Assembly: GCA_902585315.1 (NCBI GenBank)
Contig: CACIDC010000001.1
Coordinates: 27,250-91,249 of the forward strand
DNA length: 64,000 nucleotides
Direction of reading: 5' to 3'
Origin: an uncultured SAR86 cluster bacterium
GTDB taxonomy: Bacteria; Pseudomonadota; Gammaproteobacteria; Magnimaribacterales; TMED112
Shown: one piece after another, positions 2,436 to 13,042 of the stretch
How positions within the stretch are numbered: the first letter of the stretch is position 1
Layout: every line of letters starts with the position of its first letter
Translations under genes and position numbers: made by a program
The notes under the pieces: model-generated
Databases searched by the model: none
The model's input: the letters and a program-made list of their open reading frames with translations, nothing else
What the model was told of the DNA's origin: nothing

Positions 2436-5400
2436 TTATTGAATGCTATCAGGTACTTTAAGTAGCAGTTTATCGCCCCGATAGATGACGCCTTCACCCT
2501 CTGGAATTATTTCAAGGTAATAAAATGCGTTCAACTTATCGTAAGCTGAATCATCGTATGAATCGGATTTATCTATGGAAACACATTTTGGTCCTGTTTC
2601 AGTCCCCCAAGTAATGATTGGAGCAGAAAGCTCTAGGTCAGTAGTGTTGATAGGAACTTCGGAATTATAATCAAAATGCTCTGGCCCCCTTACAACAAGA
2701 TTAGCTGTAACTGTACTTGCCTGTTTGCCAGCAAGAATTACACAGACTGTTCCACTGTTATTTGCACCCATATCAACAACGTCTTTCTCAAAGTAAATAA
2801 GGTTTTCGAAATCCTTGTTGGTATCTGATGATCCTTGACTGAAATATTCAATTGGACCTTCAAATACATCAAAACTTCTCCAGAGTGGCATACCACTATT
2901 TACAAAATTATTATTCAAGCTAACAGATAAGTAGGATTTAACATCAAAGAACTCATCAAAATTTTGTTTTGCTGTGTCGTCTAGAAGGGCATAGAAGCTT
3001 ATCAACAAATTTAAATATCCAGCGTAAATATCTTTATCCAGGCTTGTTAAATTGAACTCTTCTGTAAGTTCTAAAGCCTCATTAACTACATTACCTAAAT
3101 ATTCAAAAGCTATATTCGCTGATCCATTTGGAGCAAAATTAATTCCTTCATTTGTAGAATTCATGATCATTGGCAGAGACATTGTAATTCTGCTTTCATC
3201 TTCAGCTTTTACACCAGGATTACTGCCTTCTTTAAATTGAGTCAGTGTGACTTCAATATTAATATTCTTATTCGATAAATAAGGATTAAAAGCACCATTA
3301 TGCTTGACCAACAATTTAAAGTCGTTTTCAGCTGTAATCCCACCAATTTGGAGTTTGCCAATAATTTCATCTTTATTTAGTCGGTGCAATATGCTTGCCT
3401 GGGTTGCATCACCAATATATTTCTCTCCAAGATTATTTTGTTGTCGTGTTAAGTTTAAATATAAAGGTGTATGTCTCACATCTAGTCCATTACTTTTCGA
3501 AGATTGAATAATAATAGAGGATATTTCAGTATAATTTGGTATACCTTGATCCCCTTTCAGTTCATCCAGCCCATATTCTTCTAATTTATTGAAGAATTCT
3601 TCTCTTGCTTGAGCGCTGTAATATCTATATTGTTCCTCTCCTTGTCCACCTTCCAAGGGAAGAGTAGTATGGGAAAATTCATTCAACCATCTGTAATTTG
3701 AATTATTGGAATTGAAGGTCCATTGTAATCTTGAATTACTATCTCTAGTAGTAAAGGTGTAGGAGGTTCCCAAACCTCTTCTTGCATAAAATGGGTAATT
3801 GCCAAAGGAGTAATCAAGACTTGATAAATCACTAATGATGTCTTGGTTATCGTATTGTTCCGGACTCTTAAAGTAATCTATAAGAGAAAATCCTAAAACA
3901 GAGTTTCCACAACAATCGAAAAATTGAGGAAGCCCTCTAGAGTATGGTGGCTCTGTAATAGCGACACTTGTTCCATCACCTTCAGTCAATCCAAACATAT
4001 TATAAGTTTGATATTCAATTAACTCTGCAAACCAATCTCTTATTGGATAACAGCTTTCATTGTTTTGATCGCGTGTGTCTTTTTGCACTAATAATGAAAT
4101 TTGCTTTCTAGCTGGATTACCGCTTAAATCATCACCATCCTGAGCCACTAATCCAAACCTTTTTCTTTCTTGGCAGTAGAGCTGATATTCTTGATTAGGT
4201 CTATTTGGATCATAATCCCAGAATCCAAAATCTTCGACACCTATTCCGAATTCATAGTCAGTGTTTGTAAATGGTGTAGGTAGGTTTGATAAATCAACAG
4301 ATTCATCCACAAAAGTTTGTTGAAAATTATAATTTCGAGCACTTCTTTTTACCCCATTCAAAGAAAATTCATCGTATACGCAGGATGAAATTGAGTCAGG
4401 TGAACAAAAATATCTTGTAAGTTGGTTTTGGTCGTTAAGCGTTACTTCTGTTGCATAAAATTTAAATCTATTCTCGAGATTAGAGTCTATTGGCTTTATA
4501 AAGCTGCCATGAAAATTAAACTCAATATCATTTAAATCGCCTTCTTGAAAAATCTTATTTCTAGCTTCTTCATTTAAATACATAGTTACTGGTAAAAATT
4601 GATCGAATCTTTCACTTACTTCAGTTGTAAGATTCTGCTCAAGTGGAAGAACCTGTTGTAAGAATATATCTACTAACTCGCCTGCTCTTTCTTCCGTGAT
4701 ATTTCCTTCAGTCGTTCCGACAAAATCCTGCACCAGATCTGAAATTGTAAATCCATATAAATTGTTAAATCTTTGATCAAATTCATCAACTTTTGATTCT
4801 ATTTCAGTATCTAAAGCCCAACCTTCTTCAGCACAACCTTGTTCTATAGTTAACTCTTCCTCTAGAACCTCTCGTTTAGCTTCAATTATCAATTCAGTAA
4901 GTAAAGTTGTGAAAGGTGTAACAAAGACTTCCTCATCACCGTATTTACTTAGTCTTGGCAAGATCATTTTGAAAGGCTCGACCACCTGTCCTCTAGAGCT
5001 ATCAATAGAATTTTCATCTGCATAAACGACGATTGGTCTTTTCAAAAGACATGTTCTTAGCTCTTCAAATAATTCTTCACCACCTTCAACAAATTGATAT
5101 TGAGGTTCTGGTGCTGGGGTTGGTTCCGGTGTTGGTGCCGGAGTTGGTGCTGGAGTTGGTGCTGGTGAAGGGGCTGGGGTTGGTTCTGGGGTTGGTTCTG
5201 GTGTTGGTTCTGGGGTTGGTTCCGGAACAAGCTCAATAATTCCTGCTGCTAGAAGTCTCTCGGTTGCATCAAATGCAAAGGTACCACCTTCTCCAGTAAG
5301 TGAAGATATTTCTATATCTTGTTGAACAAAATCAAAGTTTTCATCAATCCATGCCGTCGCATTCTCTAAATAACCATCAATGGCTTTTCCAACAATGATA

Positions 5401-5573
5401 GAGGAAGGGTAATATCTTGTTGGTCCCGGTGCTGGGGTTGGTGCTGGGGTTGGTGCTGGGGTTGGTGCTGGTGTAGGGGTTGGTGCTGGCGCAGAACCTC
5501 CGCCTCCACCTCCGCCACAGGCAGTAAGTAATGCAATAGTTAAAACACTAAAGAAATAATTTAATTTTTTCAT
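2436..5573 (-). CDS. Large (1045 aa) orphan lipoprotein with Cys-Gly7-(PAPT)n tether, a ~65-aa N-terminal domain, a second Pro/Glu/Thr linker and a ~890-aa body of unknown function
   Basis: Signal peptide plus lipobox: MKKLNYFFSVLTIALLTAC, then GGGGGGG and [27 protein letters not shown] second linker is present: [42 protein letters not shown] recognise no catalytic motif in the remaining sequence. Confidence 0.8.
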   Translation of the reverse strand: MKKLNYFFSVLTIALLTACGGGGGGGSAPAPTPTPAPTPAPTPAPTPAPGPTRYYPSSIIVGKAIDGYLENATAWIDENFDFVQQDIEISSLTGEGGTFAFDATERLLAAGIIELVPEPTPEPTPEPTPEPTPAPSPAPTPAPTPAPTPEPTPAPEPQYQFVEGGEELFEELRTCLLKRPIVVYADENSIDSSRGQVVEPFKMILPRLSKYGDEEVFVTPFTTLLTELIIEAKREVLEEELTIEQGCAEEGWALDTEIESKVDEFDQRFNNLYGFTISDLVQDFVGTTEGNITEERAGELVDIFLQQVLPLEQNLTTEVSERFDQFLPVTMYLNEEARNKIFQEGDLNDIEFNFHGSFIKPIDSNLENRFKFYATEVTLNDQNQLTRYFCSPDSISSCVYDEFSLNGVKRSARNYNFQQTFVDESVDLSNLPTPFTNTDYEFGIGVEDFGFWDYDPNRPNQEYQLYCQERKRFGLVAQDGDDLSGNPARKQISLLVQKDTRDQNNESCYPIRDWFAELIEYQTYNMFGLTEGDGTSVAITEPPYSRGLPQFFDCCGNSVLGFSLIDYFKSPEQYDNQDIISDLSSLDYSFGNYPFYARRGLGTSYTFTTRDSNSRLQWTFNSNNSNYRWLNEFSHTTLPLEGGQGEEQYRYYSAQAREEFFNKLEEYGLDELKGDQGIPNYTEISSIIIQSSKSNGLDVRHTPLYLNLTRQQNNLGEKYIGDATQASILHRLNKDEIIGKLQIGGITAENDFKLLVKHNGAFNPYLSNKNINIEVTLTQFKEGSNPGVKAEDESRITMSLPMIMNSTNEGINFAPNGSANIAFEYLGNVVNEALELTEEFNLTSLDKDIYAGYLNLLISFYALLDDTAKQNFDEFFDVKSYLSVSLNNNFVNSGMPLWRSFDVFEGPIEYFSQGSSDTNKDFENLIYFEKDVVDMGANNSGTVCVILAGKQASTVTANLVVRGPEHFDYNSEVPINTTDLELSAPIITWGTETGPKCVSIDKSDSYDDSAYDKLNAFYYLEIIPEGEGVIYRGDKLLLKVPDSIQ
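5103..5225 (-). repeat. GC-rich in-frame repeat block encoding the internal (PEPT/PAPT)n linker of the 1045-aa lipoprotein
   Basis: Plus strand reads ggtgctggggttggttccggtgttggtgccggagttggtgctggagttggtgctgg... Codons 117-157 are P-E/A-P-T/S repeats. Confidence 0.95.
5418..5519 (-). repeat. Repeat block encoding Cys-Gly7-(PAPT)n tether of the 1045-aa lipoprotein
   Basis: Codons 19-52. Plus strand reads ggtgctggggttggtgctggggttggtgctggggttggtgctggtgtaggggttggtgctggcgcagaacctccgcctccacctccgccacag. Confidence 0.95.
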
Positions 5574-5611
5574 TGTCCCCCAACATTAAAAGTAAAGAAT
5601 ATTATTCGTTA

Positions 5612-12884: not shown

Positions 12885-12930
12885 CTTTTTATAATAATGG
12901 AAAAAAATGTAAGAAAAAAGAACAAAAAAA

Positions 12931-13042
12931 AAGCCCGATAATACCTACTCTCGCGCTTACGCACTACCATCGGCGCCTCACCGTTTCACTGCTAAGTTCG
13001 AGATGGAATTAGGTGGTACCAGTGGACTATTGTTATCGGGCA
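12931..13042 (-). rRNA. rrf: 5S ribosomal RNA (ends +/- 3 nt)
   Basis: The reverse complement tgcccgataacaatagtccactggtaccacctaattccatctcgaacttagcagtgaaacggtgaggcgccgatggtagtgcgtaagcgcgagagtaggtattatcgggc is collinear with E. coli 5S (CCGAACUCAGAAGUGAAAC, GCGCCGAUGGUAGUG, GAGAGUAGG). The terminal helix gcccgataa/ttatcgggc is intact. Confidence 0.95.

Follow-up and report, generated by a model that had tools for sequence, protein, structure and literature searches.

Do the genes that this SAR86 gammaproteobacterium carries between its single rRNA operon and coaE serve a common function, and if so, which one? In the 64-kb stretch of DNA that we analyzed (the window), the minus strand reads 16S, 23S and 5S rRNA, an S12-like hydrolase, an S8 protease, a 181-aa ORF, an M28 peptidase, an ALDH7-type dehydrogenase, a 1045-aa lipoprotein, coaE and yacG, all co-directional, an order and shared direction that a preliminary description of this DNA had given correctly. 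The gaps from 5S down to yacG are 48, 19, 1, 21, 56 (8 with an ATT start), 38, 46 and -17 nt, and secA, on the plus strand, is convergent with coaE-yacG. Judged from sequence, the best reading of the interval is a putative outer-membrane-anchored exo-enzyme array, in which an ASP/ORF2-type protease module accompanies an M28-ALDH7 core, with the following features:

15918-17439, minus strand: 16S rRNA
13084-15797, minus strand: 23S rRNA
12933-13040, minus strand: 5S rRNA, upstream anchor (Rfam RF00001, 71.6 bits)
11652-12884, minus strand: S12-like (beta-lactamase-fold) serine hydrolase lipoprotein (PF00144, E 7e-15)
12801-12884, minus strand: S12 leader and lipobox
12654-12800, minus strand: S12 Gly7 and (PAPT)n tether
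11655-12647, minus strand: S12 catalytic part
9158-11632, minus strand: ASP-type (kexin-like, S8B) subtilase lipoprotein (PF00082, E 6e-31; PF01483, 30.8 bits, cutoff 21)
11543-11632, minus strand: S8 leader
11348-11551, minus strand: S8 tether-1
about 10913-11365, minus strand: Cys-containing N-domain of S8, with no recognized fold
10799-10918, minus strand: S8 tether-2
9161-10798, minus strand: S8 catalytic and P domain
8611-9156, minus strand: 181-aa predicted ORF2-type external chaperone and temporary inhibitor of S8 (weak PF22148 match, E 6e-4)
6964-8589, minus strand: M28 metallo-exopeptidase lipoprotein with a weak PA-domain signal (PF04389, E 2e-41)
5612-6955, minus strand: ALDH7-type (piperideine-6-carboxylate / aminoadipate-semialdehyde) dehydrogenase, 447 aa, cytoplasmic (NF050084, 679 bits)
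2436-5573, minus strand: 1045-aa lipoprotein (the giant) in the ALDH/coaE slot, with a leader/Gly7/tether module as in S12 and S8
1793-2389, minus strand: coaE, downstream anchor (PF01121 and TIGR00152)
1645-1809, minus strand: yacG, downstream anchor (ORF found; PF03884 matched by orthologues in relatives)

A T10 run directly follows the closing stem of the 5S rRNA, the S12 start lies 48 nt past 5S, and no terminator-like hairpin was found between the two in a promoter/terminator scan that was itself uninformative. The same coaE/yacG anchors are present in relatives L086-L089, L098 and L099. The remainder of the window is mostly core, as had been proposed (yfiH, rluD, bamD, hemBCD, rho, accBC, leuS, dacA, mltB, rodA, mrdA, rpoD and dnaG, with the canonical peptidoglycan enzymes encoded by dacA, mltB, mrdA and rodA), and also carries katG and a two-component/c-di-GMP cluster. 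Block G+C is elevated (0.40-0.43), but GC3 is uniform (0.24-0.28), so the elevation is no sign of foreign DNA and the block is compositionally native.

Among PDB entries, the S8 protease comes closest to Aeromonas sobria ASP (3hjr/3wqb; E about 5e-57, residues 279-803). Its catalytic residues D329, H370, N471 and S605 are present, with D, H and S aligning with those of ASP; the furin S1 Asp is not conserved, and a cis-propeptide would find no room beside the catalytic domain. We classify it as a predicted propeptide-less, ASP-type kexin-like subtilase. The 181-aa partner starts 1 nt past the S8 stop, a gap that predicts translational coupling. It begins with a signal or anchor, varies in its middle part, and has in its C-terminal part a prodomain-like domain (aa about 105-173) and a tail that is invariant. 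It had been called I9-like, and the prodomain-like fold holds, but three observations suggest that it is of ORF2 type and not merely I9-like. First, the top Foldseek matches of its AF2 model are subtilase prodomains and ORF2 (3wqb_B), with a modest model (pLDDT 60.5) and weak E-values (7e-3 and above). Second, PF18492 (ORF_2_N) is matched by 8 of the 10 intermediates that the 181-aa profile found, although the partner sequence itself matches neither PF18492 nor ORF2. Third, in Microbulbifer a PF18492 partner is encoded 13 nt downstream of the S8 homologue, in the same position as the 181-aa ORF. We therefore assign the partner, as a predicted and divergent member, to the ORF2 family of external chaperones.

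[quoted passage not shown] The SAR86 pair resembles ASP/ORF2 (3hjr, 3wqb; PF18492) in its kexin-like S8 and P-domain without cis-propeptide, in the small partner gene directly downstream of the protease (PMC5638518), and in the prodomain-like fold, conserved C-terminal tail and transitive PF18492 sequence link of that partner. It differs in that the SAR86 protease is a lipoprotein and bears a 68-aa tether, a Cys-containing extra domain (about 150 aa) and a 40-aa second tether, whereas ASP is a soluble secreted enzyme; in that the SAR86 partner ends in Glu and ORF2 in Lys, with no direct PF18492 match for the former; and in its M28-ALDH7 context. SAR86 is not among the five genera for which asp-orf2 operons are listed (PMC5638518).

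M28 retains its ligand and catalytic residues (H314, D335, E367-E368, D395 and H487), and among PDB structures it matches most closely the leucyl aminopeptidase of Vibrio/Aeromonas proteolytica (E about 3e-16). The adjoining ALDH (match to PDB 6dbb, E 6e-159) had been taken for a truncated gene at an internal junction; instead, the reading frame stays open and coding as far as a conserved ATT, and the gene is intact (dN/dS about 0.04, range 0.035-0.037). This inferred start, at 6955-6953 with GAGG before it (the gene otherwise spans 5612-6907), lies 8 nt past the M28 stop, which suggests translational coupling of ALDH to M28; the ATT is kept at 11 of 11 M28-ALDH junctions and aligns with the ATG of the more distant relative L006. 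In L006 a saccharopine-dehydrogenase-family gene follows ALDH, which supports a link of ALDH to lysine. M28 and the complete ALDH7-type dehydrogenase also stay adjacent in the distant types, L006 and L098, and are the most conserved pair of the locus.

The flanking slots are less constant. S12 carries the motifs SVGK145 and YLN232 and matches most closely the Leptospira lipoprotein Lsa45 (8dc1, E 1.5e-16); its substrate preference is not readable from sequence, its best relatives being esterase/amidase-like or an adhesin. It adjoins 5S/23S in L089, L093, L094, L095 and L096, and the 23S/5S-S12 junction is found on six contigs. The giant has no Pfam or PDB match outside its linkers and just 6 relatives among 5.8 billion proteins; it occupies the same position in L098 and L099, is missing from L002, L003, L086 and L087, and is a presence/absence cassette. 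Alternative cassettes at the locus include a GH81 family protein, cadherin-like/Big_9 lipoproteins, 644-724-aa proteins of unknown kind and a second S12, and those in relatives have the same Cys-Gly6-7-(Pro/Thr/Ala)n leader and tether, while L006 is without S12, S8 and the 181-aa partner, yet keeps M28-ALDH. We read the slots around the M28-ALDH core as filled by differing module-bearing cassettes, relative by relative: the accessory character claimed for the interval is seen across relatives, in the form of a conserved core with swappable slots and not of a strain-specific island. Since S12, the giant and even S8 appear dispensable in some relatives (L006, L098), “one system” would be too strong. 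We put at about an even chance that the rrn-coaE interval is dedicated to exported, lipid-anchored hydrolases on long Pro/Thr/Ala tethers, used in polymer harvesting.

Canonical lipoboxes are present in S12 (FLSAC21), S8 (VLTAC23), M28 (LLAGC23, without a long tether) and the giant (LLTAC19). Pro/Thr/Ala tethers, all encoded by 12-nt tandem repeats, occur in S12 (aa 29-77), S8 (aa 28-95 and 239-278) and the giant (aa 24-53 and 112-158). The lipoprotein signals and shared targeting module described earlier are confirmed in the sequence, with long tethers on S12 and S8. The module, Cys-Gly7-(PxPT)n, is common to three of the four lipobox proteins (S12, S8 and the giant); all three copies in the window fall in the 10.5-kb block, and of the 22 ORFs that bear the module across 11 SAR86 loci, 21 are in the rrn-coaE interval. 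Such a hydrolase with a lipobox and then a Gly/Ser/Pro-rich spacer recalls the T2SS-dependent surface lipoproteins PulA and SslE/AcfD, and it is through this low-complexity leader and linker that S12, S8 and the giant match, at their N-termini, the N-terminus of SslE (NF037973 residues about 15-90; PDB 23px). The likeness is confined to leader and linker, whereas the catalytic domains are unrelated, and neither T2SS nor Slam nor any other export gene is present in the window. PulA/SslE-type enzymes remain cell-bound after export, and lipoproteins reach the periplasmic face by the default Lol pathway (PMC7857515).

Of the two orientations, display of the tethered enzymes at the cell surface seems to us the likelier one. 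It is possible, if doubtful, that the same enzymes face the periplasm and digest oligopeptides or oligomers brought in by TonB-dependent transporters (“selfish” uptake), and, with the same tentativeness, that ORF2-type inhibition guards the periplasm during folding only. Periplasm-spanning outer-membrane lipoproteins such as LpoB also carry long disordered tethers, and M28 lacks one. Periplasmic enzymes would further agree with default Lol delivery (PMC7857515), with a window free of surface-export machinery, and with the plentiful TonB receptors of SAR86 genomes (PMC3569297). Set against this, though not decisively, ASP-type proteases and GH81/cadherin-type proteins are usually extracellular, a kexin-like endoprotease left unrestrained in the periplasm, with about 20 nm of tether, would endanger envelope proteins, and Pro/Thr-rich linkers typify secreted enzymes. 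SusG-type lipoproteins of Bacteroidota PULs are lipid-anchored hydrolases that hold enzymes and products at the cell beside TonB-dependent import (“selfish”), and comparable loci carry differing substrate-specific heads, conceptually as in the SAR86 interval; the latter differs in being without a SusC/SusD pair or TonB receptor, in an export signal that is a Gly-run and not an acidic LES, in a target that is probably protein, and in phylum.

Variability of the slots raises a further reading, which we regard as improbable: that there is no joint function and rrn-coaE is a recombination hot spot (a flexible genomic island) collecting unrelated lipoprotein genes, and, equally improbable, that common leader and linker repeats favor insertion, the genes being neighbors by history and not by pathway. 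The cassettes are indeed of unrelated kinds, both slots vary in presence/absence, the S8-type leader is carried by differing heads, dS relative to L089 is mosaic (0.18 for S12 vs. 0.66-0.89 for its neighbors), and an ALDH of cytoplasmic metabolism sits amid exported enzymes. Comparable regions are the SAR86 hypervariable region that Rusch et al. reported in 2013 (PMC3569297, PMC3358033) and SAR11 HVR2: streamlined planktonic bacteria have there, next to or inside their one rRNA operon, a stretch of flexible gene content. The content described for these regions is glycosyltransferases and genes for outer-membrane modification rather than hydrolases, whereas here tethered lipoprotein enzymes of native codon composition surround a conserved M28-ALDH7 core. 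What argues against a hot spot is that S8-181aa-M28-ALDH, under strong purifying selection, is contiguous, with 1-21-nt gaps and S8 identities of 77-99%, on 13 contigs (ten or more independent; L001-L005, L086-L089, L091, L093 and L099), that M28-ALDH survives in the L006 and L098 types with its suggested coupling, and that every block gene is under purifying selection (dN/dS 0.035-0.20). Of the functional ensemble proposed earlier, the clustering stands, the genes staying together in relatives and not being scattered, while obligate membership of the giant and S12, both missing in some relatives, does not.

GH81 and cadherin-like cassettes at the same site point to exogenous polymers and not the cell wall as substrates, in line with the preliminary description. 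We accordingly find it very unlikely that the block performs envelope housekeeping, with S12 a DD-peptidase/PBP-type enzyme and the proteases processing or recycling envelope proteins and murein peptides of the cell itself. The fold of S12 is indeed that of a beta-lactamase, with the motifs SxxK and YxN, lipoprotein tethers resemble those on cell-wall regulators, and M28 enzymes can trim peptides whatever their origin; but canonical dacA (S11), mltB, mrdA and rodA lie elsewhere in the window, the nearest solved relatives of S12 (Lsa45, class-C-related hydrolases, an esterase and NylB) are not PBPs, the absence of S12, S8 and partner from L006 is cassette-like behavior unexpected of housekeeping genes, and GH81 has no bacterial cell-wall substrate. 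Just as little probability attaches to a role in which the tethered protease and the adhesin-like and giant lipoproteins target other cells, grazers or phage, in surface variation or defense, instead of nutrients, which would explain the hypervariability of the locus and fits ASP as an Aeromonas virulence factor (PMC5638518), the cadherin-like cassettes and the suggestion that marine hypervariable surface regions alter predator/phage interactions (PMC3569297), but sits poorly with nutritional or metabolic roles of the most conserved members (M28, ALDH7), with low dN/dS and no whole-gene sign of diversifying selection in any block gene, and with SAR86 being a free-living streamlined planktonic heterotroph.

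In the preferred reading of an outer-membrane-anchored array for polymer harvesting, Sec would export the proteins and lipid would be attached at the Cys, with Lol sorting to the outer membrane inferred because residue +2 is Gly or Thr, not Asp. Modeled on ORF2 acting on ASP, the 181-aa partner would fold S8 in the periplasm, its conserved C-terminal tail plugging the active site until release. The tethers (about 40-70 residues) would then give the catalytic heads reach to substrates while keeping them cell-bound throughout. S8 would cleave proteins and M28 would trim the resulting fragments, the substrate preference of neither being readable from sequence; freed amino acids and peptides would be imported, with lysine carbon passing through the ALDH7 step. 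The locus offers a concrete and testable handle on how SAR86, abundant in the ocean, may feed on proteins, and it places on a predicted tethered lipoprotein an ASP/ORF2-type pair hitherto known only as a secreted Aeromonas virulence factor.

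Reading away from the rRNA operon and ending with yacG, the minus strand of the window carries eight co-directional ORFs, listed here from the operon onward:

16S 15918-17439, 23S 13084-15797, 5S 12933-13040, minus strand: rRNA operon, complete
ORF 1, minus strand: beta-lactamase/S12 fold (PF00144, E 7e-15)
ORF 2, 9158-11632, minus strand: Peptidase_S8 with a proprotein-convertase P-domain (PF00082, E 6e-31; PF01483, 30.8 bits)
ORF 3, 8611-9156, minus strand: 181 aa, weakly similar to subtilase prodomains (PF22148, E 6e-4)
ORF 4, minus strand: Peptidase_M28 (E 2e-41; PA domain weak)
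ORF 5, minus strand: ALDH7-type piperideine-6-carboxylate dehydrogenase (NF050084)
ORF 6, 2436-5573, minus strand: 1045 aa, without a family match
ORFs 7-8, minus strand: coaE (1793-2389) and yacG (Pfam and NCBIfam)

From 5S to yacG, the intergenic gaps measure 48, 19, 1, 21, 56, 38, 46, and -17 nt. Canonical lipoboxes (basic n-region, hydrophobic h-region, [LVI][ASTVI][GAS]C) are present in the S12-like, S8, and M28 proteins as well as in the 1045-aa protein (hereafter the giant lipoprotein), all of these lipoprotein calls being made from sequence pattern only. Together with the Pfam and NCBIfam assignments and the shared direction of the ORFs, they bear out the gene content, order, and lipid anchoring given in the preliminary description. 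Within the operon itself, the 16S-23S spacer (15798-15917) is only ~120 nt long and holds no tRNA gene.

The G+C content of the block is raised (0.40-0.43 vs. ~0.32). Because GC3 is uniform (0.24-0.28 in all eight block genes, coaE and yacG included), we attribute this to amino-acid composition, namely to Pro, Ala, Thr, and Gly codons. On this uniform GC3 we rejected a foreign origin by composition, and the lack of any integrase or transposase ORF in the interval likewise argues against a horizontally acquired island. In a one-genome-per-species GTDB set, the ALDH gene has its nearest copies in a single-cell SAR86 genome (79%) and in a MAG of the Gammaproteobacteria (72%), with the rest at 59% or below; in 16S, the window and the SAR86 single-cell genome share 97.4% identity.

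Among solved structures, the S8 protein comes closest to the serine protease ASP of Aeromonas sobria (PDB 3hjr; complex 3wqb), with E ~5e-57 across the catalytic and P domains, followed by furin and kexin. The catalytic residues D329, H370, and S605 occur in subtilase order together with the oxyanion Asn N471, and the triad aligns with D78, H115, and S336 of ASP (ASP numbering: PMC5638518). C-terminal to the catalytic domain lies the P domain (PF01483, residues 749-819, 30.8 bits vs. a cutoff of 21), and the alignment to ASP and furin extends through it. Among positions that bear on cleavage after basic or dibasic residues, the Asp beside the catalytic Asp is kept as Glu, and the equivalents of furin D258 and D191 are Tyr/Ser and Ser, respectively, with D258 likewise missing in ASP. 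From its N-terminus, the protein comprises the lipobox, a 68-residue tether, a conserved four-Cys domain of ~150 residues (CWQGEC...CDWEGC; window 10913-11365), a 40-residue tether and, directly after this second tether, the catalytic domain, whose alignment starts at ASP mature residue 28. A related form of the Cys domain sits N-terminally in other cassette lipoproteins from loci of SAR86 relatives (L093, 9176-10921; L090, 2089-2852), making it a possible substrate-binding module. We found no match to I9 or PF22148 in the S8 protein; residues 90-240, modeled with a pLDDT of only 35, could possibly be a remote prodomain.

ASP is made without a propeptide and needs ORF2, the product of the gene immediately downstream, whose C-terminal tail sits in the catalytic cleft and which serves as folding chaperone and temporary inhibitor; asp-orf2 operons have been reported from five genera only (PMC5638518). 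Unlike ASP, the SAR86 protease is a lipoprotein with two tethers and an extra ~150-residue domain before the catalytic domain. Its immediate downstream neighbor is the 181-aa ORF, which starts 1 nt past the S8 stop (1-10 nt in 13 contigs of relatives). At word-index sensitivity this family comprises 29 matches (49-97% identity), confined to the SAR86 lineage of the window. Both its hydrophobic segment at the N-terminus and its C-terminal tail (conserved as RVxNVSFNLVEMTEVxE) are invariant.

Direct comparisons of this family with ORF2 were negative: the ORF2 family PF18492 gave no match to the 181-aa protein or two relatives at E up to 10, PDB sequence searches with the single sequence and with the profile returned no ORF2 or prodomain match, and hhalign comparisons with the Microbulbifer and Variovorax partners were not significant. 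The AlphaFold model (pLDDT 60.5 overall, 67-89 at residues 105-173) contains a beta-alpha-beta-beta-alpha-beta domain at residues 105-173. Foldseek ranked subtilisin prosegments, EpiP, fervidolysin, and furin/PC1 prodomains highest, along with ORF2 itself, whose chain 3wqb_B came fifth and gave the longest alignment. TM to target is 0.59-0.68 and the E values are weak (7e-3 to 1e-1), in agreement with the PF22148 match (E 6e-4).

Intermediate sequences connect the two families. Microbulbifer encodes an S8 homologue (35% identical) followed 13 nt later by a 183-aa bona fide PF18492 member, which carries a weak PF22148 match at the same relative position as in the 181-aa protein; the Microbulbifer and Variovorax homologues both have the protease-then-partner layout of the window. 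When the profile of the 181-aa family was searched exhaustively, it recovered ~35 more proteins, 170-223 aa in length (E 7e-12 to 8e-4). Eight of the ten intermediates tested match PF18492 in the equivalent region (E 2.6e-7 to 2.9e-3), including one, P0171, above the family cutoff (31.3 vs. 29.2 bits), and hhalign placed the widened profile co-linear with the Microbulbifer member over 56 columns (E 0.013). Given the Microbulbifer partner, the profile-found proteins, and their PF18492 matches, we place the 181-aa protein among the ORF2-type partners, as a divergent member, and, by analogy with ASP, infer that it would act as chaperone and inhibitor of the S8 protease. The protein had been described as I9-like, and the PF18492 intermediates give it, more specifically, a kinship of ORF2 type. 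We class the pair as an ASP/ORF2-type system. Aeromonas ORF2 ends in Lys, the residue preferred by ASP at P1, whereas the SAR86 tail (window 8611-8664) ends in Glu (...NLVEMTEVTE), which may hint at a different P1 preference of the SAR86 protease.

The M28 protein (PF04389, 142 bits) retains its zinc ligands and catalytic Glu (H314, D335, E367/E368, D395, H487) and resembles bacterial leucyl aminopeptidases; its PA domain is weak (19.3 bits, below the 23.9 cutoff). For the ALDH gene that follows, a mechanical ORF call places the start at TTG 6907, a codon we rejected as a conserved start since relatives have TTA, CTG, or ATC there. The frame is open upstream of this TTG, into the end of the M28 gene. 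In L006, a more distant SAR86 single-cell genome, the ALDH orthologue has an ATG start 17 codons further upstream, 5 nt past the M28 stop, and the codon aligned with this ATG is ATT in the window (6953-6955, 8 nt past the M28 stop) and at all ten other S8-subclade junctions. This ATT is preceded by GAGG or GGAG, and variation across the 16 codons between ATT and TTG is mostly synonymous. We infer that the ALDH gene initiates at ATT, with initiation probably coupled to M28 termination 8 nt upstream.

The preliminary description had reported a truncated gene at an internal junction, a claim contradicted by the open frame and conserved ATT, by intact catalytic motifs (ELGG/GQRC/EETFAP), and by a dN/dS of 0.035-0.037 over 447 codons; the conserved start, motifs, and dN/dS reject a pseudogene as well. 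As the ALDH frame runs open across the M28 stop, an M28-ALDH fusion by -1 frameshifting was also considered. We set it aside because a Shine-Dalgarno sequence and a conserved ATT aligned with ATG explain the data, and such a fusion would join an exported M28 product to an NAD-dependent, cytoplasmic ALDH. More broadly, the conserved ATT start illustrates that apparent truncations can stem from start-codon rules.

On NF050084 the ALDH protein scores 679 bits if it begins at ATT and 661 if it begins at TTG, falling below the equivalog cutoff of 730 because ~24 N-terminal profile positions are missing; its N-terminus is ~52-60 residues shorter than that of crystallised ALDH7. The ATG-initiated L006 protein behaves alike (676 bits), which identifies the short N-terminus as a lineage trait. 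Directly downstream of its ALDH gene, L006 carries a saccharopine-dehydrogenase-family gene (11298-12023), which fits an ALDH role in lysine catabolism; the window has no equivalent at that position. A link between a Lys-directed protease, the M28 peptidase, and lysine catabolism is attractive but speculative.

The remaining two lipoproteins are less readily assigned. The S12-like protein matches PF00144 (55 bits) over profile positions 53-232 only; SVGK (SxxK) and YLN (YxN) are present, and the canonical third motif (K/H-T/S-G) was not found. Its nearest solved relatives are functionally mixed, namely the Leptospira lipoprotein Lsa45, class-C-related hydrolases, an esterase, and a nylon-oligomer hydrolase. 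The giant lipoprotein has no detectable domains, no Pfam, NCBIfam, or PDB similarity outside its linkers, and just six relatives among 5.8 billion sequences. Common to the S12-like protein, the S8 protease, and the giant is a Cys-Gly7 stretch followed by a (PAPT)n tether that is 30-68 residues long and has a coding sequence of 12-nt tandem repeats. All cassette lipoproteins, meaning those in the interval that differ among relatives, have Cys-Gly6-7 and a Pro-rich tether, save where a contig end truncates them. Across 11 SAR86 loci, the rrn-coaE interval contains 21 of the 22 ORFs that bear the module. Recent gene conversion between the three leaders was unsupported, the protein motif being common and the codons varied.

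We then mapped synteny from the contexts of S8, 181-aa, S12, and giant homologues. S8-181aa-M28-ALDH is contiguous on 13 contigs (S8 identity 77-99%), and the S12 gene lies directly after 23S/5S on six. One locus, L089, independently repeats 23S-5S-S12-S8-181aa-M28-ALDH-X-coaE-yacG/secA and another, L099, repeats S8-181aa-M28-ALDH-giant-coaE/secA; the window is therefore no assembly chimera. Compared across relatives, the block pairs a conserved core with exchangeable slots and is no strain-specific island. The ALDH-coaE slot is empty in L002, L003, L086, and L087, holds the giant in the window, L098, and L099, and is occupied by a second S12-like gene in L089 and by a 292-aa reverse gene in L088; in L093 a 581-aa cadherin-like lipoprotein follows ALDH, and the contig ends before coaE. 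Upstream of M28, S8 and its partner give way in loci of the more distant L006/L095/L096 type to a protein of 196 aa and a lipoprotein of 665-724 aa. In the same position, L098 (3-3584) encodes a GH81-family (endo-beta-1,3-glucanase family) protein with a Pro/Thr tether, beginning within a TPAPTPEP linker, which suggests a laminarin-type head at this locus. Finally, L091 has a 1465-aa cadherin/Big_9 lipoprotein (3208-7605) between S12 and S8, whose C-terminal region resembles, by eye, a lamin-tail-domain plus nuclease-type module, Pfam supporting the cadherin/Big_9 part only.

The S8-type leader, KK(T/I)I(V/I)FICVA(V/A)LTAC, is also found on other heads: the 1465-aa protein of L091, a protein of L090, and a chimeric ORF in L093 (1784-3079; the locus contains Ns), where leader and tether are fused to an S12 catalytic head. 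Relative to L089, dS is 0.18 for S12 and 0.66-0.89 for S8 through ALDH. Taken with the tether common to the cassettes and its concentration in the interval, leader sharing and uneven dS speak for recombination in or close to the leader and tether. L001 carries a tandem S8-partner-M28-ALDH5' duplication (3356-5831) whose second S8 is without a leader; this and the L093 rearrangement may be real leader-mediated events or repeat-driven or co-assembly artefacts. Beside the variable slot, coaE is 49-62% identical between almost all of the window, L086-L089, L098, and L099, in contrast to its far more similar neighbors secA (85-99%) and yacG (80-94%), so that coaE is either unusually fast-evolving or repeatedly replaced. 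A single imported haplotype of giant and coaE was rejected, coaE being ~50-60% identical with or without the giant in nearly all relatives.

Under the Lol rules, a non-Asp residue at position +2 leads to outer-membrane sorting of a lipoprotein. Owing to their Sec/lipobox leaders and non-Asp +2 residues, the block lipoproteins would be exported, lipidated, and sorted to the outer membrane, where by our order-of-magnitude estimate the tethers would reach ~10-20 nm. No surface-lipoprotein exporter gene (T2SS, Slam, or BAM-dependent) was found in the 64-kb window, and the heads may face outward or may sweep the periplasm behind TonB-dependent import. We argue that they would act on exogenous polymers rather than on the cell's own wall, based on the GH81 and cadherin-like alternatives, the kinship with ASP, and the separate peptidoglycan enzymes elsewhere in the window (dacA, mltB, mrdA, and rodA). 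Elsewhere in the window (46419-52299), genes for a 1001-aa hybrid sensor kinase, a HisKA-REC-GGDEF protein, and an EAL protein are clustered; such elaborate c-di-GMP signalling is unexpected in a genome that is streamlined.

As to expression, a T10 run directly follows the 5S closing stem and gives way to T-rich sequence (window 12885-12945), with the S12 start 48 nt downstream and no separate terminator hairpin seen between the stem and that start. Scans were at background, detecting no canonical terminator between 5S and S12 or between block genes, and promoter and terminator counts at or below shuffled expectation were uninformative. Co-transcription, including possible read-through from the rRNA operon into S12, would therefore be compatible with the data.

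These observations can be combined into a single picture of a purpose-built cassette-exchange locus, which we put forward tentatively and consider, as a joint reading, rather unlikely. In it, the leader-Cys-Gly7-(PxPT)n module would have two roles, as an address and tether displaying heads on the cell and as a recombination handle, letting natural SAR86 populations swap catalytic or binding heads, of which the known ones are the ASP-type protease with its chaperone, GH81, cadherin-like, S12-like, and giant proteins. The site after the sole rRNA operon, without a recognizable terminator, would provide strong read-through expression, and the ATT-coupled M28-ALDH7 pair would form a fixed downstream processing core.

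The individual parts are all from known families; the block lipoproteins recall PulA and SslE, lipoprotein hydrolases on Gly/Pro-rich spacers, and flexible regions beside rRNA genes are known in streamlined marine bacteria. The published SAR86 hypervariable region is of glycosylation type (PMC3569297; PMC3358033). The main SAR86 genome papers that we searched make no mention of proteases, peptidases, or lipoproteins, and we found nothing relevant in the literature on a T2SS, on proteases, or on metaproteomes of SAR86. Three features appear new: an ASP-type protease that is anchored by lipid and tethered twice, the fixed linkage of this protease to M28 and to an ALDH7 initiated at ATT, and an rrn-coaE interval in which swappable heads that bear the module surround a conserved core.

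SAR86 are among the most abundant surface-ocean heterotrophs, and their use of high-molecular-weight organic matter, especially protein, is still conjecture. Protein consumption by SAR86 has been treated as supposition, with genomic context seldom of help (PMC8371827). A SAR86 isolate now exists (PMC11582366), and the localisation and function of the locus are therefore testable. The locus offers a defined candidate enzyme set, a module recognizable as both targeting signal and tether, and substrate heads that vary at the population level. It would also carry the ASP/ORF2 design, represented by soluble virulence factors in a few copiotrophic genera, into a streamlined oligotroph, here in lipid-anchored form.
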